DNA from: an uncultured Acidimicrobiaceae bacterium
GTDB taxonomy: Bacteria; Actinomycetota; Acidimicrobiia; Acidimicrobiales; RAAP-2
Direction: 5' to 3'
NCBI GenBank assembly: GCA_963819695.1
Contig: CAWFXD010000002.1
Location: forward strand, 503,142-567,141
Length of the DNA stretch: 64,000 nt
Each line of letters begins with the position of its first letter. The stretch's first letter is position 1. Positions 22,995 to 46,345 of this stretch are shown here, piece by piece. The translations under genes and the position numbers were made by a program. The notes below the pieces were generated by a model, which was given only the letters and a program-made list of their open reading frames with translations, had not been told where the DNA came from and did not search any database.

Positions 22995-23307
22995 GGGAGT
23001 CCAATGGGCCAGGTGGGGGCCTTGGGCACCCCCTGCACCGACGTCCAAGACGCGTCGGGACTTTGGTCCCTAGCTGGCCGAATTGCTGGTCTGGCACACT
23101 GAGTCATACATCTTGCGCAGTCTGGAGGTGTGAAACGGGTAGGGGCCTGAGAGGTTCCACGGAATCACGTTGCCGGATCGTGGATCTTCCAGCCTGATTC
23201 GAGCTAACGAAGTCAGTCTCGTTGCAGGTTCACCGATCACGGTGATGTCAAAGAGTTGGATTCCAACCCGATGAACAGCGATCTGGCACAAACGGGGAAG
23301 CGATCTG

Positions 23308-24927
23308 GTGCTACCGGGAGGAACGAAGGCTAGCCAGAACAACGGGACGGCCGACCACCAGCGATCGGGTTCGGTAGTGACCGCGAGCCGCAGGCGACCC
23401 TCGGTCCTGACCTTGGCCGTTGTTGTTGTCTTGGCCGTCGTGTCGGTGGTCGGGTTTGTGTTCACCAAGCGCAACACCGATCAACAGGAACAGGCACTCC
23501 TCCAAAGCAATACCGGCCAAGCCGCCGCCTATGTATCGGAGATCTTCTCGGCTATTGCCGACGACCTCACCTCGGCGGCTGCCATCGTGACTTCGACCAA
23601 CGGATCCCCGACCGCTTTCGAAAAAGCCGAGCCGTCTACACCGCCTTTGGTTCTTCTCCTGGTCAAGAAGACCGGCGCCGACTATGTCGTGTCTGCGGGC
23701 TCGGGCTCCGGCTTCCAGCCCGGCCAGACCCTTCAGGGAGGCGCCCTGTCCACGGTGGCACAGGCCGGGTCCAAGTTCAACGCAGGTCCGGTCACCTACG
23801 ACGGCAAGCTGAGCACGGCACGATTTGCCATCGGGGGGACGGCGGTGCCCGCTGGCCTGGTCATCTACGAACAGTTCTCCCTCAACCCGTTCACCGCGAC
23901 TCCGGTGACGACCGGGAAGCCTTTTGCACAACTCAAGGTCGCGCTGTACGGCGCTGGACCGATTAGCATGCAACAACCTCCTGGTAAGTACCAGCAGTTC
24001 GCTGCCCCTCAGCGGTTCGGTGGCGCGCAGCATGCCTCCGTAGGGAGCTCGCAATGGACGCTCGTGGCGGTGGCCCGCAGCCCCTTCATCGGAGGGTTCG
24101 CCAGGTACTCTTCAATTATCGTTCTCGTCCTCGGTCTGGTGATGGCCCTTATCATCGGGATCGCCATCGAGATCCTCGTTCGACGACAGCGCTATGCCGA
24201 AGCACTGGTCGATGAGCGCACCCAGGAACTGACCAGATCCCAGGCCGCGTTGGTTCGCCGGGAGCGACTCTCTGCCGTTGGAGAGATGGCGACGGTGATC
24301 GGGCACGAATTGCGTAACCCGCTGGGAGCGGCCATCAACTTGCTCTACCTGGCCCGCAACCGGGTCGCCGACCGCGACGACCCCGAACTCAACGGCTACC
24401 TGGTTCGGGCGGAGCGGGAGACGAACCGAGCCGCCGCCTTGTGTGAAGATCTCACTTCCTACATGCGCGAACGCCAACCCGTCTTCGTGAACCTCAACCT
24501 TGGTACGGTGGTGGCTGAAGTCCTCGAATCGACCCCGCCACCAGCCGGGATCGACGTTTCGGTACAGGACAACGGTGTTGACGTACAGGCTGACAGCGCC
24601 CAGCTCGTACAGATGCTCACAAATGTCATCGACAATGCGTATCAGGCCATGCCCGATGGGGGTTCGCTGCGCATAGCTGGTTCCCGGAACAATGGCGTTG
24701 TCGAGATCACCATGGAGGACACCGGAGTTGGCATTGACCCCACGGTTGCTGATCGGCTTACCGAACCCTTCTTCACCACCAAGCCGGTCGGAACCGGCCT
24801 CGGATTGGCTATCGTCCAGCGCTTCGCCAATGGCCATGGCGGCACCGTCATGATCGAGAATGGCGTCGAAAGTGGGGCGCGTGTGACCATCCGACTACCA
24901 AACGCCACCACCGAGGTGACACGATGA
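23308..24927 (+). CDS. Sensor histidine kinase with ~250-aa extracytoplasmic domain
   Basis: A TM helix (LTLAVVVVLAVVSVVGFVF), a second TM (IIVLVLGLVMALIIGIAIEILV), HisKA (ERLSAVGEMATVIGHELRNPL) and HATPase N/G boxes (NVIDNAYQAM, DTGVGI, GTGLGLAIV). Confidence 0.85.
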   Translation: MLPGGTKASQNNGTADHQRSGSVVTASRRRPSVLTLAVVVVLAVVSVVGFVFTKRNTDQQEQALLQSNTGQAAAYVSEIFSAIADDLTSAAAIVTSTNGSPTAFEKAEPSTPPLVLLLVKKTGADYVVSAGSGSGFQPGQTLQGGALSTVAQAGSKFNAGPVTYDGKLSTARFAIGGTAVPAGLVIYEQFSLNPFTATPVTTGKPFAQLKVALYGAGPISMQQPPGKYQQFAAPQRFGGAQHASVGSSQWTLVAVARSPFIGGFARYSSIIVLVLGLVMALIIGIAIEILVRRQRYAEALVDERTQELTRSQAALVRRERLSAVGEMATVIGHELRNPLGAAINLLYLARNRVADRDDPELNGYLVRAERETNRAAALCEDLTSYMRERQPVFVNLNLGTVVAEVLESTPPPAGIDVSVQDNGVDVQADSAQLVQMLTNVIDNAYQAMPDGGSLRIAGSRNNGVVEITMEDTGVGIDPTVADRLTEPFFTTKPVGTGLGLAIVQRFANGHGGTVMIENGVESGARVTIRLPNATTEVTR

Positions 24928-25310
24928 TCGATGACGTCAAGGTCCTCGTACTGGTGGCCGATGACAACGATGGCATCCGGAACACCACGGCCGCGATCCT
25001 GCGGGACGTCGGGTACACGGTGACCGAGGCACCGGATGGGGAGGCGGCTCTGGAGGCACTCAGCCAGGAGGCGTTCGATGTTGCTCTGCTCGACGTACGG
25101 ATGCCCAAACTGGACGGCATTTCGGTGGTGACTGATTTGGATCCTGAACCTCCACCGCCGGTGATCGTGATGGTCTCGGCCTACGACTTTGGCGCCGACC
25201 TCCGACAGCATCTCGGTCGGCGAGTCTTCAAGTATCTGAAGAAACCGGTTCCGCCGAAAGAGCTGATCGATGTCGTGTTCTCCGCCTCTGAGGGGATAGT
25301 GAGATCCTGA
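24924..25310 (+). CDS. Single-domain response regulator (REC only)
   Basis: The ATG overlaps the kinase stop (ATGA). Motifs: VLVADDNDG, LLDVRMPKLDG, MVSA and YLKKP. Confidence 0.85.
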   Translation: MIDDVKVLVLVADDNDGIRNTTAAILRDVGYTVTEAPDGEAALEALSQEAFDVALLDVRMPKLDGISVVTDLDPEPPPPVIVMVSAYDFGADLRQHLGRRVFKYLKKPVPPKELIDVVFSASEGIVRS

Positions 25311-25375
25311 ACCCGGGTGATGGGTCGATGAGGCTTTCGCGTTGTCGAGCCGTCGAGGACGTTAGGTAATGTTTC

Positions 25376-28357
25376 GTGGAATCCGGAATTGATAGTGGCG
25401 GGATAGCGCCCGCGACCGCCTCACCCCTCGGTGACGTTTGGAACCAGCGCGAATCCGGCGAGCCAAGCCAACGCGGATCGAGTCGGGTGCGTGCTCCTCA
25501 ACCCCCCGGGGACGTAGTGCCTATGATTCGGGAGGTGCATCCCGAGGGGATTTCCGCGGACGGGCTCCAGCCGAAGGTCCTGTTGGTCGACGATGACGGC
25601 GAACCGCGGACCGCGATTCGGAGAGGGCTCGACGTCGCGGGGTGGACTGTTTCGGAAGCATCCACCGGGACGGAGGCCATCGCCATGGCCTCTGAAGGCC
25701 AACCGGATGTGATCGTCCTCGATCTCGGCCCGCCCGATTCCGACCGGCGTTGGGTGCTGGCGGAATTGAAATCATCGGTCGAAACGGAATGGATCCCGGT
25801 GGTGACGGTTTCGGACCGGGGGGAACGGTCGACGGTGAGCAACCTGTTGCGGGAGGGAGCCGAGGACTTCATTCAGAAACCCATTTCGCTGGACGAGCTG
25901 GAGGCCCGGCTCGTCGCCGCACGGCGAGTGACGATCGCGCACCGGAAGTCGCTGGTGAGCGAGAGCCGGTACCGACAGCTGGTCGACCTTGCCGCCGAAG
26001 CAATCTTTTCGATTGACACCGAGGGGACTGTGACGTTCGTCAACCGTGCCGCTGCCGACATGCTCGGGAGAGATCAGGGCGAAATCGTCGGGCGGCACGT
26101 CTTCGATTTCATGGACGAAGAAGCTCAGGCAGCTACGGAAGGGAACGACGAAGCGCGCCGGGCGGGCCAACTCGGTTCCTACGAAACCCGGTTGCTCGAT
26201 GCCGAGGGAGGAACGATCTGGGTCCAGGTGGAGGCTTCCCCGCTTTACGACCCGGCAGGCGGCTACACCGGAAGTGTCGTGATGGCCACGAATCTGACCT
26301 CCCGGCGCGCCGCCGAGCAGTCTCTCCGGGTGAGCGAAGCCAGATTCAGATCGACGTTCGAACGCGGGCCATCCGGGATCGCCGAGATCGCCGTCGACGG
26401 CCGCTTCGTGCACGTGAACCCGGCGCTGTGCGAGATCCTCGGCTATTCCGCTGAGCAACTCACGGCGATGACGCTTGCCGACGTCTGTCACCCGGACGAC
26501 GACGAGCTGCTTGTCCAGCCACCCGTCGATCAGACTCATCAAAGTGGTACCGAACCGCAGCTGGCGCCATCCGAGCAATTCCATGCCGAGCGACGTCTGG
26601 TACATGCGGAGGGGAAGCTCGTCTGGTGTGATGTCAGCGGGTCTGCGGTGTTCGAGTCTGATGGCACCTTCGCCTATTTCGTGGTGCACTTCGTCGACGT
26701 CACCGACCAGAAGGAATTCGAGCGCTCGCTGGTCAGGTCGGAGGAACGCTGGAGAATCGCTTTCGATCTTGCGCCGGTCGGCCTGGCGGAGCTGTCGCTG
26801 GACGGCCACTTCATCCAAGTCAACCCCGCGCTGTCGGAGATCCTCGGCTACACGGCCAGACAGCTCCGGGCCATGACCGCCGCCGAGGTCAGCCATCCCG
26901 ATGATGTAGACGTGATCCGTCAAATCATGGCCGAGTTACCCCGTCTCGATATCGAGGATTTCAACTTCACCAGGCGGTTCATCCATGCGCTCGGGAAGGT
27001 CGTCTGGTGCGTCGTCAGAGCGGCCCGGATCCACGGCACCGACGGGGCCGCCGATCACTATCTGGTCGGATATCTCGACATCACGGATCGAAAAGAATTC
27101 GAGAGCCAGTTGGAGGAGATGGCAGAACAGGCGAATGAGGCGTCTCAGCTCAAGTCGAATTTTCTGGCCAACATGAGCCACGAGATTCGCACGCCGATGA
27201 ACGGCGTCATCGGGATGTCCGAGCTTCTACTCGAGACCGACCTCGATTCCATTCAGCGTGACTATGCCGAGACCGTGCATAGCTCGGGTGAGGCACTGCT
27301 GACCGTCATCAACGACATCCTCGACTTCTCCAAGATCGAAGCCGGCAAGGTGGAGATCGAGGACGTCGAATTCAGCGTGACCACCATCGTCGAAAGTGTC
27401 GTGGACCTGCTGGCGCGAACTGCGGAGGCCAAGGGGCTGGAGTTGGTGGCGTCGGTCGATGGCTCGGTTCCGGCCACGGTCACCGGCGACCCGGCTCGGG
27501 TGCGCCAGGTCCTGATCAATCTTGTCGGCAATGCCATCAAATTCACCCAGGCCGGGCACATTGCCGTCCGGGCCACCAAGGGCGAGTCCGTGGGTGCTCA
27601 TTCCGTTCTCCGATTTGAGGTGTCCGACACGGGAGAAGGGATACCCGCCGAAAAGCTCGATCTGATTTTCCATCCTTTCGTTCAAGCGGACATGTCGACG
27701 TCCAGGAAGTTCGGGGGTACTGGCCTGGGGCTGTCGATCAGTGGCCAACTTATCGGGCTGATGGGAGGTGGCTGCGGCGTATCGAGCGAAGTTGGAGTCG
27801 GAAGCACATTCTGGTTCACGATAAAGGTCGGCACGGATGGCGTGGCGAAACGCGGGTTGATGTCAGCTGAGGCCACCCCGAAGCCGTCGGACCCGGTCCT
27901 CGATGCGGTATCGACCCCATCTCCTTCGAATGCGGATGATTCCGGGGAGGGCTGGCTGCTGCTGGCCGAAGACAATCTCATCAACCAAAAGGTTGCGGTC
28001 GGCATGCTCTCCAGCGCCGGGTATCGGGTCGATACCGTGCTCAACGGTGCCGAGGCGGTCAAGGCGGTGGCCGACGGGGCCTACGACGCGGTATTGATGG
28101 ACTGCCAGATGCCGGATCTGAACGGCTACGACGCGACGGCGGCCATCCGGGCGCTCAAGAGCCCCAGCCGGTTCATTCCAATCATCGGGGTCACCGCGGG
28201 TGCGCGGCAGGAGGACCGTCGGCGTTGCCTGGACGCGGGTATGGACGCCTATATTTCCAAGCCGGTGATCAAGGACGCCCTGGTGGCCTTGGTGGAAAGG
28301 ATCGTCAAGAGCCGACCAGTCATCGAGGATGCAACCGATGGCGGTGGCCTCGGCTAG
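25376..28357 (+). CDS. Hybrid sensor kinase: REC - 3x PAS - HisKA - HATPase - REC
   Basis: N-terminal REC ([10 protein letters not shown]...[10 protein letters not shown]...FIQKP). Three PAS-like repeats ([41 protein letters not shown]). [13 protein letters not shown], HATPase ([21 protein letters not shown]) and a C-terminal REC ([11 protein letters not shown]...[12 protein letters not shown]...YISKP). An alternative ATG start is at 25523. Confidence 0.85.
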
Positions 28358-28371
28358 ACCGGCCAGGCAGA

Positions 28372-29601
28372 ATGGAGCGTATGGACTTCGCGTTCTCGCC
28401 CAAGGTGGAAGAACTACGCCAGCGGTTGCTGGACTTCATGGACAACCGCGTCTATCCGGCGGAGCCGGTGTATGCCGGGCAGGTCGCGGAGTCCGGCAAA
28501 CCGTATTACCACGCACCCATCATCGAAGAGTTGAAAGCCGAGGCACGCAGCCAGGGGTTGTGGAACCTCTTCTTGCCTAACGGGGAATGGGGTGCCGGGC
28601 TGTCCAACCTCGAGTACGCGCCGCTGGCCGAGGTCACTGGTCATAGTCCGTCTCTCGCCCCGGAGGCGCTCAATTGCTCAGCGCCGGACACCGGCAACAT
28701 GGAGCTGCTGGCGGAATTCGGAACTCCGTTGCAGCGGGACCAGTGGCTGGTCCCGCTCCTGGCCGGAGAGATCCGATCCTGTTTTGGAATGACCGAGCCC
28801 GACGTGGCGAGCTCGGACGCCACCAATATTCGCACCCGCGTCGAGCGCGACGGCAGCGAGTACGTCATCAACGGCCGGAAGTGGTGGACCACCGGGGCAA
28901 TGAGCGATCGTTGCAAGCTGTGCATCGTCATGGGCGTCACCGACCCGAACGCCGACCCGTATCACCGCCAGAGCATGATCCTGGTTCCCCTCGACGCTCC
29001 CGGTGTCACGGTGGTCAGACCTCTGTCGGTGTTCGGCTACGAGGAGGGTGGGGGCGATGCCGAGGTCCTGTTCGAAAACGTGCGGGTCCCGGTCACCAGC
29101 CTGCTCGGCGAAGAGGGCAGCGGCTTCGCGCTGGCCCAGGCCCGACTCGGACCTGGCCGCATCCACCACTGCATGCGCGCCATCGGCATGGCCGAACGGG
29201 CGTTCGATCTCCTGTGCCGACGGGCCCAGACCCGGGAGGCGTTCGGCAAGCGCCTGGCCGAACAGGGAGTGGTCGGCGACATGATCGCCGAATCACGGAT
29301 CGAGATCGAGCAGGCCCGACTACTCGTGCTCAAGACCGCGTGGTTGATGGATACCGTGGGAAACAAGGGGGCACGTGTCGAGATCTCCGCCATCAAGGTC
29401 ATCGCCCCCCGGGTGGCGTGCCAGGTGATCGATCGGGCCATCCAGGTGCACGGTGGGGCCGGGGTTTCCCAGGACTTCCCCCTGGCCCGGATGTACTCGG
29501 CCGCCCGTACCCTTCGGATTGCCGACGGTCCCGACGAGGTGCACAAGATGACCATCGCTCGACGCGAGCTTCGACGATTCGAGGCCAGCCCGGCGGCCTG
29601 A
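28372..29601 (+). CDS. Acyl-CoA dehydrogenase
   Basis: [19 protein letters not shown]..., [24 protein letters not shown] and the C-terminal IADGPDEVH. The ORF-track 5' extension to 28225 overlaps the kinase gene. Confidence 0.9.
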
Positions 29602-32643: not shown

Positions 32644-33062
32644 TCACACCCTCCCTTTCGACCTAACGACGACAGATTAACGCTTGTTTCAAGGCAGCTC
32701 ACCAGGCTTGACGGCAGGCTGGGTTACGACATAAGGGTCAGACCCGTCATCGTGCTCAAGTCCGGCTGGAAATCCCCGACCAGACGACGGACCGGCGCCG
32801 CCCCCACCCTCGCCGCGTACGGGGGCCCGGTACCCGGCTGTCAATGGCGGCAAGTCACCCTCGGTTGCCACGGTCCCTCTCCGGACGTCGAGGTCAAAGG
32901 AGCAGGCCCGATACCACGCACAGCGTTATTTCGTGCAAAAAAGCCCACGAAAAAGGGACTATTGTCACAAATTTTCGGCAATTCTCTCATGGTCACTTCC
33001 CGGGGCGACGAAGGCAATGGAGCAGAGAACGCTCGATGGCTCGTTTACGAAAGGGAATTGCC

Positions 33063-33773
33063 ATGAAGATCGTCGGTCATATCAGGAGCAACAAGCGGGG
33101 ATTGCTTGTGTCCGTCGCCGCGGTGGTTGCCCTGGCGACGACCGCGGCGTTCACACTCGGCGCCTTCAGCGCCACCATCGTCAACAGTACCAGCAACTTC
33201 TCGTCGGCCACCATCCAGCTTCAGGAGGGTAACGGCGTGACCACCTGCTATTCGACAGGCACTGGTACCGGCGGCTCAGTCACCGCCGCCAACTCGAATG
33301 CGGGCTGCGGCATCAACGTGCTGACCGGCACCCTCGGGCAGGTCCCGGGGGGCACCGCACTCACCAGCACGATCACCCTGACCAATGTCGGGAACCATGC
33401 CGCTGCGGCGGCGACTCTGGCGGTGGGCGCCTGCACGGCGGCCGCCGCCTCTGACTCGAACCTCTATGTCGGCGCCGACCTGGCCGGCAATGCCTTCTGC
33501 GGCAAGGTTGACGTCACCATCGCCAACACCACGACCGGTGCCACAGACAAGTGCGTCTACCCGACCCAGGCCGCCGTCTGCCCCGGGCTATCGAATACCT
33601 ACAATCTGACCACGCTGGCGACGGCGGCGACGTTCAATACCACGCCGATGTCAGCCCTGGCCCCGGCCGGGACGGCCACCTATGTGGTGACGGTCCAGCT
33701 CGATGCCGCGGCCACCAACGCCGACCAGGGCCTGACCGCGACGGTGCCCTTCACGTGGAGCATCAGCCAGTAA
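33063..33773 (+). CDS. Secreted TasA/camelysin-like protein with SipW-cognate-type signal peptide (P1, candidate major fibre subunit)
   Basis: AAGGGA RBS 7 nt before ATG 33063. MKIVGHIRSNKRG + helix LLVSVAAVVALATTAAFTLG + AFSATIVNSTSNFSSATIQL. The body is Thr/Ala/Gly/Asn-rich with 6 Cys. It lies two genes upstream of a SipW-type peptidase. An alternative ATG is at 33036. Confidence 0.7.
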   Translation: MKIVGHIRSNKRGLLVSVAAVVALATTAAFTLGAFSATIVNSTSNFSSATIQLQEGNGVTTCYSTGTGTGGSVTAANSNAGCGINVLTGTLGQVPGGTALTSTITLTNVGNHAAAAATLAVGACTAAAASDSNLYVGADLAGNAFCGKVDVTIANTTTGATDKCVYPTQAAVCPGLSNTYNLTTLATAATFNTTPMSALAPAGTATYVVTVQLDAAATNADQGLTATVPFTWSISQ

Positions 33774-33799
33774 TCCTGGAGCATCCGCCAGTAACCCAC

Positions 33800-33823
33800 G
33801 AGGCCAGCTGTGCCCGTGGCCTC
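33800..33823 (+). terminator. Hairpin between P1 and P2 (possible attenuating terminator)
   Basis: GAGGCCA-gctgtgcccg-TGGCCTC: a 7-bp perfect stem and 10-nt loop, 27 nt after the P1 stop, with no U-tract. Confidence 0.3.
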
Positions 33824-33873
33824 TCCGGGCCCGGGCGCAGCCGACCTCGGCGAGCTTCGAGAGGACGAGGACC

Positions 33874-36018
33874 ATGCGCGTAGTCCCGTTTGTTTCTCGA
33901 CATGGCGCGCACAAGGCCCTCGGGATCGTGGCGACGGTCGGAGTTTTGCTCCTCGTCCTGGGCACCGCGGCGGTGGCGGCGGGATTCGGCGCACACCTGG
34001 TCGGCAACACCACCAAATTCTCCTCGGCGACCATGCAATTAGAGGGGACGACGGCCGCCGTCAACTGCTACTCGACGGGGACCGGCTCAGGCGGCTCGGT
34101 GAACTCCAATTCGACCAACTGCGCGGCCGGATCCCCGCTTCCATCAGGGTCGCTTTCCAGTTCCGCGTCGTCGAACGCCACGACCACCTTGACGTCTGTA
34201 GGAAACGCGAACGCCTCGGCGGCGACGGTGAGCTCGCCGACCTGCGGGGTGGCCCAGCTCGCCGATGCCGGCACCAATGTCCAGTGGAGCGGCTCGGGAT
34301 CCAACACCGCGCTGGTCTTCAACGGCATCACCTACCAGGCGACGGGGCCGATGACCGGTGGCCAGGCAATCACCACCGACGGATCGACGGGATGGGCGGA
34401 GACGACCGCCTCCTACGTCAATCCGGAGACCTTCACCGTGCTCGTGTGGTTCAAGACGTCGTCTCCGTCCGGGGCCCTCATCGGGTTCGGGAGCCAGACG
34501 AACCCGGTCACCTCGACGCCGGCAACTCACGACCGCCAGCTCTGGGTGGACTCGAGCGGGAAGCTGGTCTGGGGTCTTTATAACGGCGGGCTCGACCAGG
34601 TCACCAGCTCCTCGACCGTGGACGGCGGATCGTGGGAGTTCGCCGCCGCGACGGTCGGGAGCGCCGGGCAACTGCTCTACGTGAACGGCGCATCAGTCGG
34701 CACCGGCACCACCACCAACACAGCCGCCCAGAGTTTCACCGGATGGTGGAGCTTGGGTTACGCCTCGCTGGCCGGCTGGAACGATATCCCCACCAACTAC
34801 TACTTCAACGGCTCGATGGCTCAAGTGGCGGTGATCCCTTCGCAACTGACCGGGTCACAGATCTCCACCCTCTACGCCGATCGCAGCTCACTGAGTACCT
34901 ATACGTCTGCCGTCAACGCCTTCAACCCCGTCGACAGCTGGGGGCTCAGCGACTCGGGCACGGTCCCTTACCTTGGCTCGGTCCCTGGAGCGACGGCGTC
35001 GACGACGCTCGCCGATGCCTCCGGCAACGGCAACACTGGCAGCGCACAAGGCGGGGTCACCCTGCAGTCAGCCGGTCCTACCACGCTCGGCGGCAACGCC
35101 GTCTTCCTCGACGGCTCTTCGGGCTACGTGGAGACCGCCAATTCCTACTCGAACCCCGAGGGGTTCTCCGCCGTCGCCTGGTTCAAAGCATCGGGTACCT
35201 CGGGCGGCACCGTCCTTGGTTTCACTACGTCGCAGACGAACGCAGCCCCCAGCAGCTGGGATCGTACCCTCTGGCTCGACAACTCCGGCAAGCTGGTGTG
35301 GGGGGTTTATCCGGGGTCGACGAGCGAGGTTACCTCGCCCCTGGCCTACAACGATGGAAACTGGCACATGGCGGTGGTCGAGATCGGCTCGTCGGGACAG
35401 CAACTGTGGGTGGACGGCACCCGGGTCGCATTCAACGCCTCGGTGACCACCGCGCAGAACTATACGGGTTACTGGCACCTCGGCTGGGGTTACGAAAGCT
35501 CCTGGCCTGACGCCCCGACCAGCGGCTACCTGTCCGGATCGTTGGCCCAGGTGGCGATCGTCCCTACCCAGCTCTCGGCATCGAGCATCTCCAACCTGTA
35601 CACGGACACTTCCGTGGGCGACTTGACCGTGGACATGGGCGCGCTCTCGCCCATCTCCTACTGGCCGCTCGGTGATTCGTCGTCGAATGTCTGCGGCACC
35701 ACTGAGCTCACGGTGCAGCAGACGGTGGGGTCCACCAACACCTGCATCTTCCCGGCCGCCACGGGCACCTGCGCCGCCCCGAGCTCGGCCAACCTGATCA
35801 CCGGAGTCGGCGCCCGCACGATCACCGTGCCCGATTTCGGGGACGACCGTGGCGATCAAGATCACCCTCGAGTTGAGCTCGGCTTCAGGTACCGCGGTCA
35901 AGGGCCTTCACCTCCTCCCGGACGTGTCCTTCACCACGACCAAGGGTTCGACGCTTTGGTCCGCCGAGATCGCCTACGCCAGCGCGTCGGCATGGCTATG
36001 ACCCGGGGAAGGCCATGA
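33874..36018 (+). CDS. Large secreted P1 paralogue carrying two LamG/concanavalin-A-like lectin domains (P2); 3' end frameshifted, true stop probably TGA 35999-36001
   Basis: Leader HKALGIVATVGVLLLVLGTAAVAAGFGAHLVGNTTKFSSATMQL resembles that of P1. It has two duplicated modules (..TFTVLVWFKTSS..DRQLWVDSSGKLVWGLY.. and ..FSAVAWFKASG..DRTLWLDNSGKLVWGVY..). After 35842 the protein-like sequence continues in frame 2 (TTVAIKITLELSSASGTAVKGLHLLPDVSFTTTKGSTLWSAEIAY). Confidence 0.75.
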   Translation: MRVVPFVSRHGAHKALGIVATVGVLLLVLGTAAVAAGFGAHLVGNTTKFSSATMQLEGTTAAVNCYSTGTGSGGSVNSNSTNCAAGSPLPSGSLSSSASSNATTTLTSVGNANASAATVSSPTCGVAQLADAGTNVQWSGSGSNTALVFNGITYQATGPMTGGQAITTDGSTGWAETTASYVNPETFTVLVWFKTSSPSGALIGFGSQTNPVTSTPATHDRQLWVDSSGKLVWGLYNGGLDQVTSSSTVDGGSWEFAAATVGSAGQLLYVNGASVGTGTTTNTAAQSFTGWWSLGYASLAGWNDIPTNYYFNGSMAQVAVIPSQLTGSQISTLYADRSSLSTYTSAVNAFNPVDSWGLSDSGTVPYLGSVPGATASTTLADASGNGNTGSAQGGVTLQSAGPTTLGGNAVFLDGSSGYVETANSYSNPEGFSAVAWFKASGTSGGTVLGFTTSQTNAAPSSWDRTLWLDNSGKLVWGVYPGSTSEVTSPLAYNDGNWHMAVVEIGSSGQQLWVDGTRVAFNASVTTAQNYTGYWHLGWGYESSWPDAPTSGYLSGSLAQVAIVPTQLSASSISNLYTDTSVGDLTVDMGALSPISYWPLGDSSSNVCGTTELTVQQTVGSTNTCIFPAATGTCAAPSSANLITGVGARTITVPDFGDDRGDQDHPRVELGFRYRGQGPSPPPGRVLHHDQGFDALVRRDRLRQRVGMAMTRGRP

Positions 36019-37268
36019 CCGCCATCGTGGTGCCGCCGGCACGGTACTCCGTGACGGAGGGTAGTGAGTCCAGGCGTCGGCTGACCCATCGGGATAGAAA
36101 TGCACCGGAGGCGACCAAGGGCCAGCGCCGGCCCACCGGTGGAGGCGTCCTCTCGCTGCTGGCCATTGCTGCCGTGGTTCTCTCGGTGGCGGGGGTGCTG
36201 GGGTGGCAACTCACCGGCGGAAAGCTCGTGGTGATGGAGACCCCTTCCATGTGCCCGACGGTGTGCGTCGGGTCGCTGGTGGCCGACCGGCCGCTGGTGG
36301 GTCCGGTCCACGTCGGAGAGCTCATCACCTTCTACCCTCCGAACACCCGGGCCGAGACCTACACCCACGAGATCTCCCACATCTTCCCCAATGGGATGAT
36401 CCAGACCCGAGGGGTGGGAAATCCACAGCACGATCCCTGGCTCATCACCCGCTCGGACATCGTGGGCCGTACTGCCTTCAGCATTTGGGGGCTCGGGTGG
36501 GTGTACAAGGCGCTCCCCCTGCTGGCCGTCGGCGTGATGGCCTGGGTACTGGCGCGCCCCAGCGTCGCGAGGCGGTCACGGAGGGCTTGGGACCTGGGCT
36601 GGGCAACGATCCTGGTGATCCTCCCGATCTGGATGCTCCGTCCGCTGGTACGAGCAACGGTCATCACCTCGACTGTTGACAAGGCCCACCCGCACTGGGC
36701 AAGTGTCAGCGTGGTCAACACGGGCATCCTTCCCGTCTCCTTTCACATTCCCGGCGGGACCACCGCTGCGCCTATCGCGTCGACCGGCCGGGCCGTGCTC
36801 TCCGGCCCGGCGTCCGCCAACCGGCCCCTGGTGGTGCACCAGACGGCGTTTCTCCCGTGGTGGGGCTGGGCCATCGCCGCCCTGTTGGTGCTCTCGCCGC
36901 TCATCGGCTATCTCTGGCATGCCTGGCGGGACAGCGGACCGGTGCCGGAGCTGGCCACCGACCCGGACGACTCGATCGCCTTGGACCCGCCCTTGGCGGG
37001 TTTGGTGGTCTCGGGGTCGGGGACTCCGGACCGGCCATCGGATCTGATCTCGCACTGCTGCGTCGTTGGCGCCCCGGCACGAACCCCCGTTAGCGTTGGG
37101 GCGCGGCCGGGTGTCTACCCCGGCCGCCGAGGCGATCGCACAACCGTCCCCGTACCCGTCCCCGTCTGCAACGAGTTCGCGAATTTGAAGGCAAGAGACC
37201 AGTTGAGAGAGCGCACGAGCGGGTCGCGGTCGGGGTCGGATTGTCCCGCATCAACCCGTGGCCGCTGA
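36015..37268 (+). CDS. SipW-type (ER/archaeal, S26B-like) signal peptidase I, atypically long with extra TM/beta-rich C-terminal region
   Basis: N-terminal TM (VLSLLAIAAVVLSVAGVLGW), Ser box METPSMCPTV, GELITFYPP, His box YTHEISHI and a degenerate GDNN box (RGVGNPQHDPW). More TM helices follow. The 3' end is doubtful (see hairpin 37103-37127). Confidence 0.65.
   Translation: MTAIVVPPARYSVTEGSESRRRLTHRDRNAPEATKGQRRPTGGGVLSLLAIAAVVLSVAGVLGWQLTGGKLVVMETPSMCPTVCVGSLVADRPLVGPVHVGELITFYPPNTRAETYTHEISHIFPNGMIQTRGVGNPQHDPWLITRSDIVGRTAFSIWGLGWVYKALPLLAVGVMAWVLARPSVARRSRRAWDLGWATILVILPIWMLRPLVRATVITSTVDKAHPHWASVSVVNTGILPVSFHIPGGTTAAPIASTGRAVLSGPASANRPLVVHQTAFLPWWGWAIAALLVLSPLIGYLWHAWRDSGPVPELATDPDDSIALDPPLAGLVVSGSGTPDRPSDLISHCCVVGAPARTPVSVGARPGVYPGRRGDRTTVPVPVPVCNEFANLKARDQLRERTSGSRSGSDCPASTRGR
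37103..37127 (+). terminator. Strong GC hairpin (terminator-like) inside the nominal 3' tail of the peptidase ORF
   Basis: GCGGCCGGG-tgtctac-CCCGGCCGC: a 9-bp perfect stem and 7-nt loop. It is followed by about 130 nt of lower-GC sequence before the ABC gene start. Confidence 0.4.
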
Positions 37269-38058
37269 CCCCGTCATCCGGGTGACCGGGCTCAGCGTGG
37301 TTCGGGACGGGACCGCGTTGATCGAGGACATCAACTGGGTCGTGAATGCCGGCGAACGGTGGGCGTTGCTCGGCCCCAATGGCTCGGGGAAGACCACGTT
37401 GCTACGGGTGGTGGGCTCGGCCCTCTGGCCCACCCGAGGCGTGGTGGAGATCTTGGGTGAACGCCTGGGTCACGTCGACATGCGCATCCTGAGGCAACGG
37501 ATCGCGACGGTCAGCGCGTCGATCAGTAGATCGCTCCGACCTCAGTTGTCCGCCCTCGAGGTGGTGCTGACCGGCCGCTATGCCGTGCTGGAGACGTGGT
37601 GGCACGACTTCACGGCTGGCGATCGAGCCGAGGCCGATCGGCTGTTGCGGTTGGCGGGATTTGGGGGTGACTCGTTCGACGACCGGTCATTCGGGTTGTT
37701 GTCCGAAGGAGAGCGCCAACAGGTGCTGCTGGCGAGGGCGTTGATGGGCCAACCCGAACTCCTGTTGATGGACGAGCCGGCGGCAGGGCTCGACCTCGGG
37801 GCACGAGAGCGCTTGGTCCGGCGCCTGTCGGTGCTGGCCGATGACCCGTCGGTCCCGGCGTTGGTGCTGGTGACCCACCATGTGGAGGAGATCCCGCCGG
37901 GGATGACCCATGCCGCGCTCCTCCGCGAGGGCCGGATGGTGGCGGCCGGACCGGTGAACCAGGTCCTCACCGATCGGGCCGTGTCCGATGCCTTCGGCGT
38001 CGAGGTGGTCGTATCGCAGTCTGAGGGCCGCTGGTCGGCTCGGGCGATGCCCCGGTAA
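37258..38058 (+). CDS. ABC transporter ATP-binding protein (stand-alone ATPase, no permease adjacent)
   Basis: Walker A GPNGSGKTTLL, Q-loop, signature LSEGERQQV and Walker B LLLMDEPAAGLD. Confidence 0.85.
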   Translation: MAADPVIRVTGLSVVRDGTALIEDINWVVNAGERWALLGPNGSGKTTLLRVVGSALWPTRGVVEILGERLGHVDMRILRQRIATVSASISRSLRPQLSALEVVLTGRYAVLETWWHDFTAGDRAEADRLLRLAGFGGDSFDDRSFGLLSEGERQQVLLARALMGQPELLLMDEPAAGLDLGARERLVRRLSVLADDPSVPALVLVTHHVEEIPPGMTHAALLREGRMVAAGPVNQVLTDRAVSDAFGVEVVVSQSEGRWSARAMPR

Positions 38059-41675: not shown

Positions 41676-42386
41676 TTGACGCTCATGATCGTTGTGGTGA
41701 TCCTCGTAGTGGCATGGCTGGTGATTCTTGGTCCCTCGATGTTCCGGCGACGCTCCGAACACGGGGGTGGAGTCAACTCCATCTCACACTTTCACCATCA
41801 GCTTCGGGTGCTGGAACAGTCCAGGGGGGAGCCGATCGTCTTCCCGGCGTTCCGCCTCCAGTCGGTTCCCGGCCACGGCACCCCGGCCCAGTCGAATTCC
41901 CCTGACAGCTCGGTGAGGCCGGTGCTTACCGTGGTGGGCGCCAAGGAACTGCCACGGCCGGCGCTGGCCTTCTTGGGCGAAGCGGCCACTCCGCGGGAGC
42001 CGGAACCCACCTACCGGCAGGCGTACCCCGAACGCATCACCACGCCTCGGTTGGCCAACCCCGAAGCCCGCGTCCTGGCCCGGCGCCGGAGACGTGACAC
42101 GTTGACGGTGCTGGCGCTGGTGTTCACCCTCACCTTGGTGATCGGCAGTATCCCGGGAGCACGGCCCGCCTGGGTGGTCACCGCCATCGCCGGCGTAGCC
42201 CTCGGCGCTTACGTGGCGATGCTGGTCCACATGCAGACAGTCATGGCGGAAGGCGAACGCAAGCTTCACTACCTTCGTCCCACCGTGGGGCAGGGCGGTA
42301 CTCGAGACGAGTATCTGGCGATGGCGGGAATGCAGGATCAGGACGGCCGGTACGGACACCCGGCTGGCCGCGCCGCTTCCCGTTGA
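41676..42386 (+). CDS. Membrane protein, possibly divisome SepX/GlpR-like
   Basis: N-terminal TM (MIVVVILVVAWLVILGPSMF) + RRRSE, then a later RRRRRD followed by two TM helices (TLTVLALVFTLTLVIG, WVVTAIAGVALGAYVAMLV). The family call is from remembered architecture only. An alternative ATG is at 41685. Confidence 0.4.
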   Translation: MTLMIVVVILVVAWLVILGPSMFRRRSEHGGGVNSISHFHHQLRVLEQSRGEPIVFPAFRLQSVPGHGTPAQSNSPDSSVRPVLTVVGAKELPRPALAFLGEAATPREPEPTYRQAYPERITTPRLANPEARVLARRRRRDTLTVLALVFTLTLVIGSIPGARPAWVVTAIAGVALGAYVAMLVHMQTVMAEGERKLHYLRPTVGQGGTRDEYLAMAGMQDQDGRYGHPAGRAASR

Positions 42387-44089
42387 CCGAATCGCTTCCT
42401 TCGGCATTCGATCCCACTTCATCCAGTCTGGCCCCAGCATCCGACACCCGCCTGGCTGACCAGCTGGCGATGGTCGGTCCGTCATTACGGGAAGAGCTGG
42501 CCGGCGCCCACCAGGCCCGGGAGGTCTCGTTGCGGGCCTGCCGGGACACCATCCGGCAGTGCAGCTTGGCCATTCGGGCGGTTCACCGGCTCTTGCCGGA
42601 CCAGTTCCGGGAACACGCCGCGGCCGCCGAAGCCTCGCTTCGAATCGCCCAGCAGGCCTTGGAGCCGTTCCCGAGGCTGGCGGCCGCCGGCTTTCTGCAC
42701 GATGCCGAAAAGGAGTATGCCGAGGCGCGGTTGACGGCCGCACTGGTGGCCGGGTCCCCGCTTCCGGACCACCGCGCCCTGGGTGTCGCCATCCCCGCCT
42801 GGCTCAACGGGCTGGCGGAAGCGGCTTCCGAGCTCCGCCGGCATCTTCTCGACCGCATCCGCGACGGCGACCTGGCCCGGGGGTCGGCGCTCCTGGACGC
42901 CATGGGCGACTGCTACGACGTCCTGGTGACGGTCGACTTTCCCGACGCCATCACCGGGGGGCTCCGCCGAGCCACTGATGCCCTCCGGGCGGTTCTCGAG
43001 CGCAGCCGGTCGGACGTGACCACCACCACCCTGCAGGTGCAGTTGCAGCGGGCCATCGAGGGAATGTCGAAGGTGCCGCTGGATCAAGCCTCCGCCACCG
43101 TGAAGCCCGGCTGGATGGATGTAGCCGCGGCCGCGGCGACAGCCGCCGCCGCCGGACTGGGCTCCTTGCCTGGTGGCGACCAATCCGGTGGAGATGGCGA
43201 AGGGGCAATTCTGTGGGAGATCCAGACGGTGGTCGCCTCGAAGGTGACCATTCGCCGGGGATCGGTGGCCTCGGGTGTTGACGATTCCTCGGCCCCCGAA
43301 GAAGTCGGTGACGGGGACCTCGAGGCACCGGCGGTCGCACTCCCAGTGGCCCAACCCCTTCCGGACATACCGGCGTCGTCGGTCGTACCGGCGGCGCCGG
43401 TCGTGCCGACTGCGGACGCGGCACGAGTTGGCGAGGTGGCACCGGAATCGAGCGAGGCGAGGGAGGCGGCACCGGTGCCACCTCAGGAGGTGCCCCACCT
43501 GCTGGATCGACCGAACGATAGCCCGCCCGCCCGCCATCGACCGTTCGGCAACCTTTGGCGGGCGCTGGGCTTTGTCATCTTTGCCATCGTCGGAACCGCC
43601 ATGGTGGCGGTGGCCGTGGCCACCCTGGCGCTCCATCTCTCCATCCGGCCGGTTCTGTCACCGAGCATGGAACCGACCTACGGGCCGGGCTGGGCCATCA
43701 TCACTCGGCCGGTGTCCACCTCGACGTTGAAGGTCGGCGACATCATCGTCTTCACCCCACCTGGCCAATCCGTTCAATATGCCCACCGAATTATTTCGCT
43801 CACCGGACCAGCAGACCATCCGGTCGTGATGACCAAGGGCGACAACAATCCCACCCCGGACGCTTGGCACGCCCGCCTGGCTTCAGACACCACACCCGAG
43901 GTAATAGCCGAAGTCCCCTTGGTTGGCAGTGTCCTCAACGGCCTGGGAAGTGGCGTCACCCGGGCGGCGGTGATCGCGTTCGCGGGCATCATCGTCTGCG
44001 GGGTCGGGATGATCTGGATAATCCGATCAGGTCGTCCACCGAGACGGCCAGACCCGGCGTCGATCCCCGGAGACCGGTCGGCGCAGTAG
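42383..44089 (+). CDS. Continuous ORF: translin-family-like N-terminal domain + low-complexity linker + TM + SipW-type signal peptidase I
   Basis: N-terminal helical region (...AIRAVHRLLPDQ...FLHDAEKEYAEARL...WLNGLAEAASELRRHLLDRIRDGDLARG...DCYDVLVTVDFPDAITGGLRRATDALRAVLERSRSD). The C-terminus has LSPSMEPTY (Ser box), VGDIIVFTPP, YAHRII (His box) and MTKGDNNPTPD (GDNN box), flanked by TM helices. An internal SD (GAGGGAGG) + GTG at 43475 could express the peptidase alone. Confidence 0.65.
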   Translation: MTESLPSAFDPTSSSLAPASDTRLADQLAMVGPSLREELAGAHQAREVSLRACRDTIRQCSLAIRAVHRLLPDQFREHAAAAEASLRIAQQALEPFPRLAAAGFLHDAEKEYAEARLTAALVAGSPLPDHRALGVAIPAWLNGLAEAASELRRHLLDRIRDGDLARGSALLDAMGDCYDVLVTVDFPDAITGGLRRATDALRAVLERSRSDVTTTTLQVQLQRAIEGMSKVPLDQASATVKPGWMDVAAAAATAAAAGLGSLPGGDQSGGDGEGAILWEIQTVVASKVTIRRGSVASGVDDSSAPEEVGDGDLEAPAVALPVAQPLPDIPASSVVPAAPVVPTADAARVGEVAPESSEAREAAPVPPQEVPHLLDRPNDSPPARHRPFGNLWRALGFVIFAIVGTAMVAVAVATLALHLSIRPVLSPSMEPTYGPGWAIITRPVSTSTLKVGDIIVFTPPGQSVQYAHRIISLTGPADHPVVMTKGDNNPTPDAWHARLASDTTPEVIAEVPLVGSVLNGLGSGVTRAAVIAFAGIIVCGVGMIWIIRSGRPPRRPDPASIPGDRSAQ

Positions 44090-44226
44090 GAATCGGCCTC
44101 GGGACGATGGATTCCACGCCTGGGGAGCCAAAAAAATAGAACTGGTTCTCGCGTTGGCTCATGTACTCCTCCGAACTTGCCGATGGTAGGGCACAAAGTC
44201 ACATCATCGGGGAACGGGAGACGTTT

Positions 44227-44913
44227 ATGAGACGCGCCAACCGCGAAAACAACCTGGACAACGAAGAAGGCGGATCGCACCGTCGACGTTGGACCTACCT
44301 GATTGCCGGAGTCTTCGGAATCGGGGTGTTGTCCCTGACCGGCGCGGGGGTCTATGCCGGCCTGACGGCAACCGCCACCGGGACCCAGACGGTTACCTCG
44401 GGTACCCTCAGCCTGACCCTTTCGGCCACCGCTCCGAGCGGCGGCTTCGGCCAGACCGTGTCAGATATGGCGCCCGGTGACCAGGACAACGTGTATGTCA
44501 AACTGACTAACGGCGGCACCTTGTCCGCCACGGGCGTGACCCTCGGAGTCACAGGAACCGGCGGGACCCTTCTGACGACCGACGCGGTCAAGGGTCTGGC
44601 GGTCGCCATCAATGGTTGTTCGGTCGCCTGGACGGTCACCTTGGGTACTCCGGGTTCGGCAACCTGCGGGGGAACCACGACCCCCCTGCTGGCGTCGACC
44701 CCGGTGGCCACCCTTTCGACCACTCCCGGAACCGTCGCGGCGAGTATCGGGGTCAATGCATCACTGTTCCTCCAGGTGAACCTCACCCTTCCGAACCAAA
44801 GTGAGAACACCCTGAACGGAACGCCACCCAGCCCGACCATCCAAGGACTGTCGACCGTCCTCACCTACAGCTTCAACGAGGCGCAGCGGGCAGCACAGAT
44901 AACCACCTCATAA
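44227..44913 (+). CDS. Secreted TasA/camelysin-like protein with SipW-cognate-type leader (locus 2)
   Basis: GGGAG RBS before ATG 44227. HRRRW + helix TYLIAGVFGIGVLSLTGAGVYAG + LTATATGTQTVTSGTLSLTL, then MAPGDQDNVYVKLTNGGTL, as in TasA-family proteins (SGTL-x-L ... PGD ... N-x-G-[ST]-L). Confidence 0.7.
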   Translation: MRRANRENNLDNEEGGSHRRRWTYLIAGVFGIGVLSLTGAGVYAGLTATATGTQTVTSGTLSLTLSATAPSGGFGQTVSDMAPGDQDNVYVKLTNGGTLSATGVTLGVTGTGGTLLTTDAVKGLAVAINGCSVAWTVTLGTPGSATCGGTTTPLLASTPVATLSTTPGTVAASIGVNASLFLQVNLTLPNQSENTLNGTPPSPTIQGLSTVLTYSFNEAQRAAQITTS

Positions 44914-44923
44914 ATACGCCTCG

Positions 44924-45550
44924 ATGCCCCGAGTGCCAGCGAGTGCCTACGCGTTCTGCGGATGCCTTCTGGTGCTCGGGGCATTGGCATTCCCGGTCTT
45001 CGGTGGGAGCGGCTCCGGAGCGGCCGGTGCGGCCTCGATCACCGCGACAGCCGGGGCAACACTTGGAAAAACCACCTTCAGCGCCGGAGCCAACTGGGGG
45101 TCCATCCCGACCACCACCTCCTCGGGTACGCCGTCGGCCGGCGCACTTGTCCAGACCTTTACGACCTCGCTGATCGGTAGCCCAGGGCCGCAGAACTTCT
45201 TCAGCTACAACTCGGGAACGGTGAATCTGGTGGCGACCACCTACACGGTCACCCTTTCCCAGTCGGGGGTCATCGTGGGCACGCCGTCGGCCACCCTGAA
45301 GACGTGCACGGTGACATGGACAACCACCTGCGGCGGAACCAGCACAACCATCAACACCTGGACCGGCGGGGCAGGGTCTCCGACAGCCACCACCGTGGTA
45401 CCGGTTGCCCCCGGGGCCCGTCTCTCCATCCAGACGAGCATCAGCGGGGTGGGTCTTTCGCTGGGCGGGACCATCACCGTCACGATCAACACCGGGGTCA
45501 ATTCCATGGCGCCCCGACAGATCCGTGCCGCGACCTTCACCACCGCTTAG
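44924..45550 (+). CDS. Secreted Thr/Gly/Ser-rich beta-type protein (possible accessory/minor subunit)
   Basis: Signal-peptide-like N-terminus (AFCGCLLVLGALAFPVFGGSG) and beta-rich composition. It starts 10 nt after the TasA-like gene. Confidence 0.55.
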   Translation: MPRVPASAYAFCGCLLVLGALAFPVFGGSGSGAAGAASITATAGATLGKTTFSAGANWGSIPTTTSSGTPSAGALVQTFTTSLIGSPGPQNFFSYNSGTVNLVATTYTVTLSQSGVIVGTPSATLKTCTVTWTTTCGGTSTTINTWTGGAGSPTATTVVPVAPGARLSIQTSISGVGLSLGGTITVTINTGVNSMAPRQIRAATFTTA

Positions 45551-45622
45551 GCCGGGAGCCGGCCGGGAGTCCTCCCGGGACCGGGTCGCGGCATCCGCCC
45601 GCACGACTGGGTACTATGCGGC

Positions 45623-46345
45623 ATGGCCAACACCCCTGACACCACCGCCGGATCGACAGGCACGGCGATCGCCGAGGCGATCGAAGGAGCCCTCGCCGGC
45701 CGGATCCTCCTTACCCACCCCTTCTACCTGCGGTGGGAGGCGGGCGACCTGCTTGCCGGTGAGCTCGACAGCTATGCCCGCCAGTACCGGTCTTTCGAGG
45801 CCGCGCTTCCTGAGATCCTGTCCGGGGTCACCCGGCGTCTGGTGGCCGACGGCTCAACTGACGTGGCCGATCTGGTGCGGCGCAACCTGGACGATGAGCT
45901 CGCCCACCCCGAGCCCCACCTGGTCCTGTTCGACCGCTTCGCCACCGCGGTCTCGGCCCAGGACCCATCGAGCGATACCGGAACCGAGGCAGGTCCGGCG
46001 GCCGATGCCTTGGTGGCCACCTACACCGACCTGGTTCAAGCCGGACCGGTAGCTGCCCTTTCGGCGCTGGCCGCCTATGAGACCCAGGCATCGGCGATCG
46101 CCAGATCGAAGGCGGAAGGTCTGCGCCGCTGGTACGGGATGGACGATGCGGGCGTGGCTTTCTGGGACGTGCACGCGGCGATGGATGCCGACCACGGCGA
46201 CTGGGCGATCGAGGCTCTGACCCAGCTCGATGCCGACCCAGATGTGGTCGCCGACGCGGCCAGGCTGGCCGCCGACGCCTGGTGGGCGTTCCTCGACGAA
46301 CGGGAAGCCGATGCCCCGGTCGGCGCCGGCTCCCGCGCCGTCTGA
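45623..46345 (+). CDS. Haem-oxygenase-like di-iron fold protein (TenA/PqqC/CADD family)
   Basis: HPFYLRWEAGDLLAGELDSYARQYRSFEAALPEIL and DELAHPEPHLVLFDRF resemble the PqqC/CADD-like family. The assignment is by memory of the motif pattern. Confidence 0.6.
   Translation: MANTPDTTAGSTGTAIAEAIEGALAGRILLTHPFYLRWEAGDLLAGELDSYARQYRSFEAALPEILSGVTRRLVADGSTDVADLVRRNLDDELAHPEPHLVLFDRFATAVSAQDPSSDTGTEAGPAADALVATYTDLVQAGPVAALSALAAYETQASAIARSKAEGLRRWYGMDDAGVAFWDVHAAMDADHGDWAIEALTQLDADPDVVADAARLAADAWWAFLDEREADAPVGAGSRAV

Follow-up and report, generated by a model that had tools for sequence, protein, structure and literature searches.

The closest described systems are the tapA-sipW-tasA locus of Bacillus subtilis and the sipW-tasA-calY locus of B. 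cereus, in which a dedicated signal peptidase of the endoplasmic reticulum (ER)/archaeal type is encoded beside its substrates of family PF12389, and each of which supplies two secreted beta-sandwich proteins. SipW processes both TapA and TasA (PMC9245690); TasA fibres assemble by donor-strand exchange (PMC9674648; PMC10151520), and TapA starts these fibres by donor-strand complementation (PMC10151520). Homologues of PF12389 accompanied by dedicated SipW-type peptidases are already known in Actinobacteriota/Actinomycetota (PMC9245690). The stretch of DNA analysed here, referred to as the window, comprises 64,000 nucleotides from an uncultured Acidimicrobiaceae bacterium (assembly GCA_963819695.1, contig CAWFXD010000002.1, positions 503,142 to 567,141), and the features of the locus under study all lie on its forward strand. 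We consider it probable that the segment at 43.56-45.55 kb is a three-gene fibre cassette of the TasA type, encoding a SipW-type peptidase, a TasA-family protein and a further secreted protein, which lies behind a pair of genes for a SepX/GlpR-like membrane protein and a translin-like protein, and whose peptidase is fused in frame to the translin-like gene. This in-frame translin-peptidase fusion is the unusual feature of the locus.

The window locus resembles both Bacillus loci in having a dedicated ER/archaeal-type peptidase beside PF12389 substrates and two secreted beta-sandwich proteins, and its TasA-like protein shares with B. subtilis TasA the SGTL-x-L, PGD and C-terminal QG..L.F.F motifs as well as a fold match to the TasA fibre. 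On the other hand, its host belongs to the Acidimicrobiales (Actinomycetota), the genes follow the order peptidase, TasA, paralogue, there is no TapA, and the peptidase bears a 393-residue cytoplasmic N-terminal extension, made of the translin domain and a linker, which occurs in no described SipW. Free-standing cassettes with the same three genes in the same order are found in unrelated contexts in three Acidimicrobiales loci (L086, L087 and L088). Their peptidase stands alone and measures 169-205 residues, the substrate is a 'TasA family protein' in the NCBI annotation, and the peptidase and TasA genes are separated by 17-26 nucleotides, against 137 in the window. Compared with these, the window cassette shows 43-48% identity for the aligned peptidases, 55-62% for TasA and 37-40% for the third gene. 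Synteny of the fused gene with the TasA gene and the third gene behind it extends to four other contigs (L082, L083, L084 and L085), and there the cassette always lies between a GlpR-like gene and a gene of the CADD/haem-oxygenase-like type. Nearly all loci related to the window come from metagenome-assembled genomes of Acidimicrobiales. At a G+C content of 68% in the window, codon-position G+C supports all four reading frames of the locus.

An earlier note on this DNA, made from its letters, had described here an independent fibre and secretion module. All the features that it named are present where it had placed them, and its observations at the level of genes stand far beyond chance, as judged from the family matches and from the synteny in four other contigs. 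The module itself is borne out, in the fused form in L082-L085 and in the free-standing form in L086-L088, as regards the SipW-type peptidase, the TasA-family protein and the second beta-rich secreted protein, but not as regards the membrane protein and the translin-like domain, which had been counted in and which constitute a separate pair. The translin-like domain had been seen, but its in-frame junction with the peptidase had not been weighed.

The open reading frame at 42383-44089 encodes 568 residues and does end, as had been reported, in the motifs SPSMEPTY, YAHRII and TKGDNNPTPD. Its C-terminal module (residues 394-568; 43562-44089) is an archaeal/ER-type, that is SipW-type, signal peptidase I, composed, according to a scan for transmembrane (TM) helices, of a first TM helix (residues 394-412), an extracytoplasmic catalytic domain, a second TM helix (residues 529-547) and a basic tail. 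TIGR02228 matches with 72.7 bits when the whole 568-residue protein is searched and with 76.2 bits for the domain alone, thereby passing its cut-off of 51.85, and Pfam Peptidase_S26 matches the C-terminal 175 residues at E 1e-7. Four fused and two free-standing homologues all have Ser428 (in SMEPT), His468 (in AHRI) and Asp487 (in GDNN). From mutagenesis of SipW, we take these residues to be the catalytic ones, in a Ser-His(-Asp) arrangement as opposed to the bacterial Ser-Lys dyad.

The next gene (44227-44913), 137 nucleotides downstream of this dedicated SipW-type peptidase gene, encodes a TasA-family protein of 228 residues, the predicted major fibre subunit. Its ATG at 44227 stands behind a GGGAG ribosome-binding site and the frame contains the motifs SGTLSLTL, MAPGD and KLTNGGTL; the product is laid out as a signal peptide (h-region at residues 24-42 after a basic n-region), the segment GLTATATGTQTVTSGTLSL and a beta-sandwich. 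PF12389 (TasA/camelysin, Peptidase_M73) matches with 23.7 bits at E 4.8e-5, its gathering cut-off being 22.5, and many of the 727 homologues carry the same family, several of them being named 'TasA family protein' of Acidimicrobiales by NCBI. A search of the family profile against the Protein Data Bank (PDB) retrieved B. subtilis TasA (5OF1 and 8AUR) at E 4e-4, with a match running through the SGTL-x-L, PGD and C-terminal QG..L.F.F motifs. The AlphaFold2 model (pLDDT 81.4, pTM 0.70) found in Foldseek the TasA fibre, 8aur_A, as its top PDB match (E 3.4e-7, probability 1.00, TM-score 0.55), and this was the sole match at E <= 1e-3; an archaeal bundling pilin (7UEG), CanA and monomeric TasA (5OF2) followed lower in the list. 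In the monomer model, residues 44-60 are predicted to be unstructured. Since PF12389, the TasA profile and 8AUR all match, the TasA-like fold which the earlier note had assigned to this gene, and whose want of family or structural support it would have accepted as telling against the module, has support of both kinds.

The third gene of the cassette (44924-45550) encodes a secreted Thr/Gly-rich beta protein of 208 residues, the second secreted protein of the locus, with the N-terminal hydrophobic segment that had been attributed to it. The mature N-terminus is predicted to begin with ASITATAG after AGA, and the protein contains two invariant Cys residues. It matches no family in Pfam or NCBIfam, and its own family is a small one, with 69 representatives among 1.84 billion proteins; it shows homology to the third gene of the free-standing cassettes, at 36-40% identity by alignment and 37-40% by tblastn. 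When its family was compared with the TasA family by hhalign, a relation was returned at a probability of 70% (E 4e-5), and the two families have in common a C..W..C.GT disulphide motif as well as an N-terminal (L/I)TATA-G, which directly follows the site of predicted cleavage. The AlphaFold2 model, built on a 12-sequence alignment, is poor (pLDDT 48); Foldseek found with it nothing at E <= 1e-3, listing generic jelly-rolls only, and the family profile had no match among PDB sequences. As the model, the fold search and the PDB profile are uninformative, it is the hhalign comparison that carries the relation to TasA. The third protein is thus a probable remote paralogue of TasA, possibly acting as a minor subunit or an initiator.

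A working model may be drawn by analogy with the tapA-sipW-tasA and sipW-tasA-calY loci of B. subtilis and B. cereus. Both downstream proteins would be exported by Sec, and the peptidase domain would then cut their atypical signal peptides, near the junction of VYA and GLTATATG in the TasA-like protein and near that of AGA and ASITATAG in the product of the third gene. By donor-strand exchange, each TasA-like subunit would then insert its freed N-terminal strand into the beta-sandwich of the next one, giving rise to extracellular matrix fibres, in which the third protein would serve as a minor subunit or as the initiator.

The translin/TRAX-like (C3PO-like) cytoplasmic domain, to which the peptidase is joined, makes up residues 1-229 of the 568-residue protein (42383-43069). 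It is followed by a fast-evolving, low-complexity linker (residues 230-393; 43070-43561) which ends in the basic pre-TM segment of the peptidase. The predicted topology places the translin domain and the linker in the cytoplasm, and, beyond the first TM helix, the catalytic domain outside, before the second helix. We regard the fusion as very likely to be real at the gene level, because the frame stays open despite indels, because third codon positions vary in excess, because there is no conserved start and because the basic segment can be aligned. In particular, the linkers of four diverged fused genes differ by many indels and contain 0 in-frame stops, while the other forward frames contain 2-8 each; substitutions in these linkers are about twice as frequent at the third codon position as at the first or second. 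There is no positionally conserved start codon ahead of the TM helix, a conserved Val being encoded by GTG in two loci and by GTA in two, and the basic segment before this helix can be aligned with the N-terminal end of the stand-alone peptidase of L087. The linker, disordered and about 165 residues long, holds a single conserved 25-residue motif, GEGAILWEIQTVVASKVTIRRGSVA (43196-43270), and this motif is also kept in the fused genes at large and in the translin-only relatives L001-L003.

A translin domain combined with an S26 peptidase was encountered in eight database clusters only, at 72-100% identity. Close relatives have translin-only proteins of 350-380 residues. An extension of 127-182 residues past the translin domain was observed solely in the fused genes and in L001-L003; in 78 more distant translin loci the gene ends 0-37 codons past the domain, without any linker. 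Sequence searches found no earlier description of the translin-peptidase architecture, domain-architecture databases not having been searched, and none of the papers searched deals with a translin-peptidase fusion or with a pair of GlpR-like and translin genes.

The assignment of the translin domain is based on the PDB entry 3zc1_A (AfTraX), which matches residues 36-215 at E 1.8e-13 over about 180 residues, and on NCBIfam models of the PRK14562 type, misleadingly named 'HAD superfamily', which match at up to E 5e-70, below their cut-offs; in Pfam, no family besides Peptidase_S26 matched the 568-residue protein at E <= 0.1. Among 18 translin homologues, E111 and E114 are nearly invariant and E146 and E150 invariant. 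These ExxE (E111/E114) and ExxxE (E146/E150) pairs align with the QELVEA and FADAVGE segments of AfTrax, and the domain thus retains the acidic tetrad of C3PO nucleases. In this it is similar to archaeal C3PO (AfTrax 3ZC0/3ZC1; NeTrax 5JR9), which has acidic residues at an ExxE...DxxxE metal-binding catalytic tetrad; this tetrad was described for NeC3PO, and translin-family proteins form octamers (PMC5100593). Unlike in archaeal C3PO, the second pair begins with Glu and not with Asp, the protein is bacterial, in Acidimicrobiales it is always preceded by a SepX/GlpR-like gene, and in the window it is covalently joined to a membrane peptidase. The 2016 paper on C3PO reports Chloroflexi only among bacteria (PMC5100593), and we found nothing relevant in the literature on translin with SepX or on translin in Actinobacteria.

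Directly upstream lies the gene of the membrane protein (41676-42386; 236 residues). Its TGA stop (42384-42386) overlaps, as had been noticed, the TTG start of the fused gene at 42383, the junction reading TTGA. By TM scan the protein has three helices (residues 1-19, 143-161 and 166-184) and two cytoplasmic regions. All four SepX_GlpR models of NCBIfam match it weakly, at E 1e-12 to 1e-6 and below their curated cut-offs, the best score being 48.6 bits (E 1e-12) where 150 would be required; the precomputed Pfam matches of its homologues include GlpR, at weak or faint strength. We call it SepX/GlpR-like on the grounds of these matches, of the TM scan and of its position upstream of the translin gene. 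The three TM helices, the long cytoplasmic region between the first and the second of them and the cytoplasmic tail are as in SepX of Streptomyces and GLPR of Corynebacteriales (for the GLPR architecture, see PMC9915583). In other Actinobacteria, both GLPR and SepX belong to the divisome (PMC9915583; PMC8748795). Unlike in the case of GLPR, the adjacent gene is translin-like and not glp, the MoeA paralogue, and no MoeA-like (glp) gene was found among ten other open reading frames of the window that were scanned.

The two genes form a separate conserved pair and are not part of the fibre module, since they are adjacent in 70 of 77 loci, and the cassette accompanies them in 0 of 81. The 81 genome loci were collected with a translin profile, and 77 had enough upstream sequence for an iterative search for GlpR-like proteins. 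In 70 of these, the GlpR-like frame ran up to the translin start or stopped a little short of it, often with a stop-start overlap; the loci bearing the pair (L001-L061, L064-L069, L072, L075, L077, L078, L080 and L081) belong to Acidimicrobiales and other Actinomycetota, and the seven exceptions to Chloroflexota and Armatimonadota. A peptidase, a TasA-like gene or the third gene was found near translin in none of the 81, so that the place given by the earlier note to the membrane protein and the translin-like domain within the fibre module does not hold. Two database gene calls (P0017 and P0018) contain a SepX/GlpR-like N-terminal part with TM helices and a translin domain in one frame, and represent either frameshift artefacts or rare GlpR-translin fusions of other lineages; no one-frame fusion of this kind was seen in the 81 genome loci. 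A reading of the nuclease and membrane-protein pair as a defence system was dropped, there being no PADLOC match.

Several points weigh against the proposed cassette as a whole. The Bacillus SipW equivalog model of NCBIfam (NF046067) scored 43-47 bits, far below its cut-off of 190, so that the enzyme is of the SipW type and not a SipW orthologue. The likeness of the TasA-like protein to the TasA fibre amounts to a TM-score of just 0.55 and a sequence identity of 16%, and that of the third protein to TasA is a single hhalign result at 70% probability, the structure model being unreliable. The cleavage sites and the formation of fibres are proposed by analogy only, a separate, internally initiated peptidase may exist, and the ancestral fusion with subsequent loss, discussed below, is the simplest reading of pairwise identities, not of a tree. 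The low identity and TM-score would also agree with downstream proteins being some other surface or cell-wall proteins, such as camelysin-like proteins, adhesins or an S-layer-like coat, which merely share the TasA beta-sandwich and a dedicated peptidase; PF12389 is likewise the 'camelysin' family, generic beta-sandwich proteins appear in the same Foldseek list and the locus has no TapA homologue. However, the TasA fibre is the sole significant structural match, with other donor-strand filaments (7UEG, CanA, chaperone-usher pilins) coming next; about 20 N-terminal residues past the predicted cleavage site are modelled as unstructured in the monomer, as a donor strand should be; and the arrangement of two paralogues beside sipW matches the fibre locus of B. 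cereus (PMC4292775). We consider such non-fibre proteins very unlikely and prefer the TasA-type fibre cassette.

As for the fused gene, one might suppose that the 568-residue frame is an artefact of the long open frames expected at 68% G+C, and that two proteins are made, the peptidase being started at an internal GTG, for example at the Val of 'EVPHLL' (residue 370), with the upstream frame open by chance. Translin-only proteins of 350-380 residues in close relatives, the existence of free-standing peptidases of 169-205 residues, and an AGGAG adjoining the GTG of Val370 in the window would all suit such an arrangement, and the gene callers behind database entries simply pick long open frames. 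Leaderless initiation and initiation without a Shine-Dalgarno sequence are common in the phylum of the host. Yet the frame is open over 166-182 variable codons in four homologues with many indels, when the other two forward frames contain 2-8 stops each, the linker has the third-position excess of coding sequence and a conserved 25-residue motif, no translin stop codon precedes the peptidase in any of the eight clusters, and the conserved Val is encoded in L082 and L084 by GTA, which is no start, without any other start being kept in position before the TM helix. An internal start for the peptidase was rejected for want of a positionally conserved start codon, and the production of two proteins seems to us unlikely. 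If the fusion is accepted, it may be asked whether its two domains work together. A C3PO-like oligomer held on the SepX/GlpR-like divisome protein could bring the peptidase to the septum or the poles or gather it there, or could let a cytoplasmic signal, from nucleic acid or from the cell cycle, gate it, thus exerting spatial or temporal control over fibre secretion. This would be in line with the retention of the fusion, purifying selection acting on both domains, across loci that share only about 78% identity in the flanking CYTH-CHAD marker, with the tight pairing, by overlapping start and stop, of the translin gene and its GlpR-like neighbour in 70 of 77 loci, with the divisome functions of GLPR and SepX in other Actinobacteria (PMC9915583; PMC8748795), with the octamers formed by translin-family proteins (PMC5100593) and with the predicted topology. 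On the other hand, in other Acidimicrobiales the cassette works with no translin domain attached, and in close relatives the translin gene has persisted where the cassette was lost or replaced. The linker is fast-evolving, translin is not tied to secretion by any experiment, and the scores behind the GlpR-like assignment themselves fall short of the curated cut-offs. Active coupling of the two domains is possible but unsupported, and we think it improbable. Most likely, the translin domain would keep a cytoplasmic role of its own together with its SepX/GlpR-like partner, and the fusion would then only tether it to the membrane beside the peptidase.

Comparison of the flanks indicates how the site may have come about. 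Locus L003 has no cassette: its translin gene carries a linker tail ending in RKHRWWGRNR and is followed directly by the CADD gene. In L001 (9427-13422) and L002 (7500-8840) the slot behind the translin gene holds different secreted proteins, with N-termini of the form AYF(T/R)STGSGTG, and in L001 also an 880-residue Gly-rich protein, without an adjacent peptidase. The slot behind the translin gene thus behaves as a hot spot for surface-protein cassettes. By the CYTH-CHAD protein encoded in the flank, the window is 86.5% and 83.0% identical to the cassette-less L002 and L003, and 79.2% and 78.4% identical to the cassette-bearing L082 and L084, respectively, so that by this marker the cassette-bearing loci span the deepest divergence of the clade. 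Insertion and fusion are thus likely to have happened a single time, in a common ancestor of this shallow clade, and the cassette would later have been lost (L003) or replaced (L001, L002), with the linker left behind as a tail of the translin protein. In L085, a long-read metagenome-assembled genome, the GlpR-like gene (156 residues) and the fused gene (434 residues) are called short within 7170-9305, with a gap of 360 nucleotides between them; these calls are probably due to frameshift errors of the assembly and not to real truncations.

The 137-nucleotide spacer between the peptidase and TasA genes (44090-44226) contains, in addition to the GGGAG ribosome-binding site, the A7 tract (44130-44136) and the palindrome AGAACTGGTTCT (44138-44149) that had been remarked on earlier, and the 6-bp hairpin CCGGGA-GTCC-TCCCGG is likewise present at 45563-45578. 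None of the three has comparative or statistical support as a feature. In the homologous spacers of L082, L084 and L085 neither the palindrome nor the A7 tract occurs; apart from the ribosome-binding site, related loci keep just two short blocks, T-GCTCA-G and TGCCGA. In folding, the hairpin region does not stand out from shuffled sequence (z = -1.27), 22 of 200 shuffles giving an equally good fold, and scans for promoters and terminators gave nothing above expectation. A regulatory role of the spacer and the hairpin was rejected on these grounds. The hairpin falls into the right edge of the variable region (45551-45604), as delimited by nucleotide comparison with L003, to which homology resumes at 45589. 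Next to it, the block GACTGGGTACTATGCGGCATG (45605-45625) is kept in the window and in L082, L084, L085 and L003, that is in relatives with and without the cassette, and its last letters are the ATG of the CADD/haem-oxygenase-like gene (45623-46345), which was identified by Pfam and NCBIfam matches. Judging from its letters, the block looks like a TACTAT -10 box serving a leaderless mRNA, and would thus mark the end of the unit.

The locus had been thought paralogous to another one in the same window, locus 1 (32844-37268), in which genes for two secreted proteins, one of them with two LamG domains, are followed by that of a 417-residue S26-like protein (36015-37268). The latter has an S26-like N-terminal part (TPSMCPT and YTHEI) and a C-terminal extension with multiple TM helices, and reaches 39.7 bits with TIGR02228, below the cut-off. 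The peptidases of the two loci are 32% identical over 71 residues, and no similarity was detected between the 309-residue secreted protein of locus 1 and the TasA-like protein. The evidence for paralogy is therefore weak, being confined to a distant likeness of the peptidases, and the two loci are analogous systems and not paralogues of recent origin, their peptidases being only distantly related. The secreted proteins of locus 1 have similar N-termini, FSATIVNSTSNFSSATIQL and GAHLVGNTTKFSSATMQL, and the tail of its 714-residue reading frame (about 35900-36018) appears to be out of frame. The reading frame at 37258-38058, considered as a candidate for the locus 1 peptidase, was ruled out, as it encodes an ABC ATPase. 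Elsewhere in the window, the region 22000-28400 has a G+C content of 0.61-0.64, compared with about 0.68 in the remainder, and contains genes for a histidine kinase (23308-24927), a small response-regulator-like protein (24924-25310) and a 993-residue hybrid PAS sensor kinase (25376-28357); this region may have been acquired horizontally.

TasA homologues of Actinobacteriota are already known and proteins of this kind already bear the name of the TasA family, so the fibre cassette by itself adds little to knowledge. Two things are new, the translin-peptidase architecture and the pair of GlpR-like and translin genes. The former, kept in at least eight sequence clusters, joins an extracytoplasmic signal peptidase to a translin/TRAX-like domain on the cytoplasmic side, and either represents a tolerated, topologically compatible natural fusion at a hot spot of insertion, or hints that fibre secretion is coupled to a cytoplasmic module. 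It is doubtful, in our opinion, that the fusion is a true bifunctional membrane protein which ties the maturation of TasA-type fibres to the division machinery or to a cytoplasmic RNA signal, with the C3PO-like nuclease of Acidimicrobiales partnering a SepX/GlpR-type protein in place of GLP. Were it so, the tie between fibres and division would be mediated by the translin domain and its SepX/GlpR-like partner, and a membrane-associated C3PO-like nuclease would hold the place that the gephyrin-like GLP has in Corynebacteriales. To our knowledge, no function has been established for prokaryotic translin proteins. The GlpR-like/translin pair offers a testable lead on their role, for instance as a membrane- or divisome-associated nuclease.

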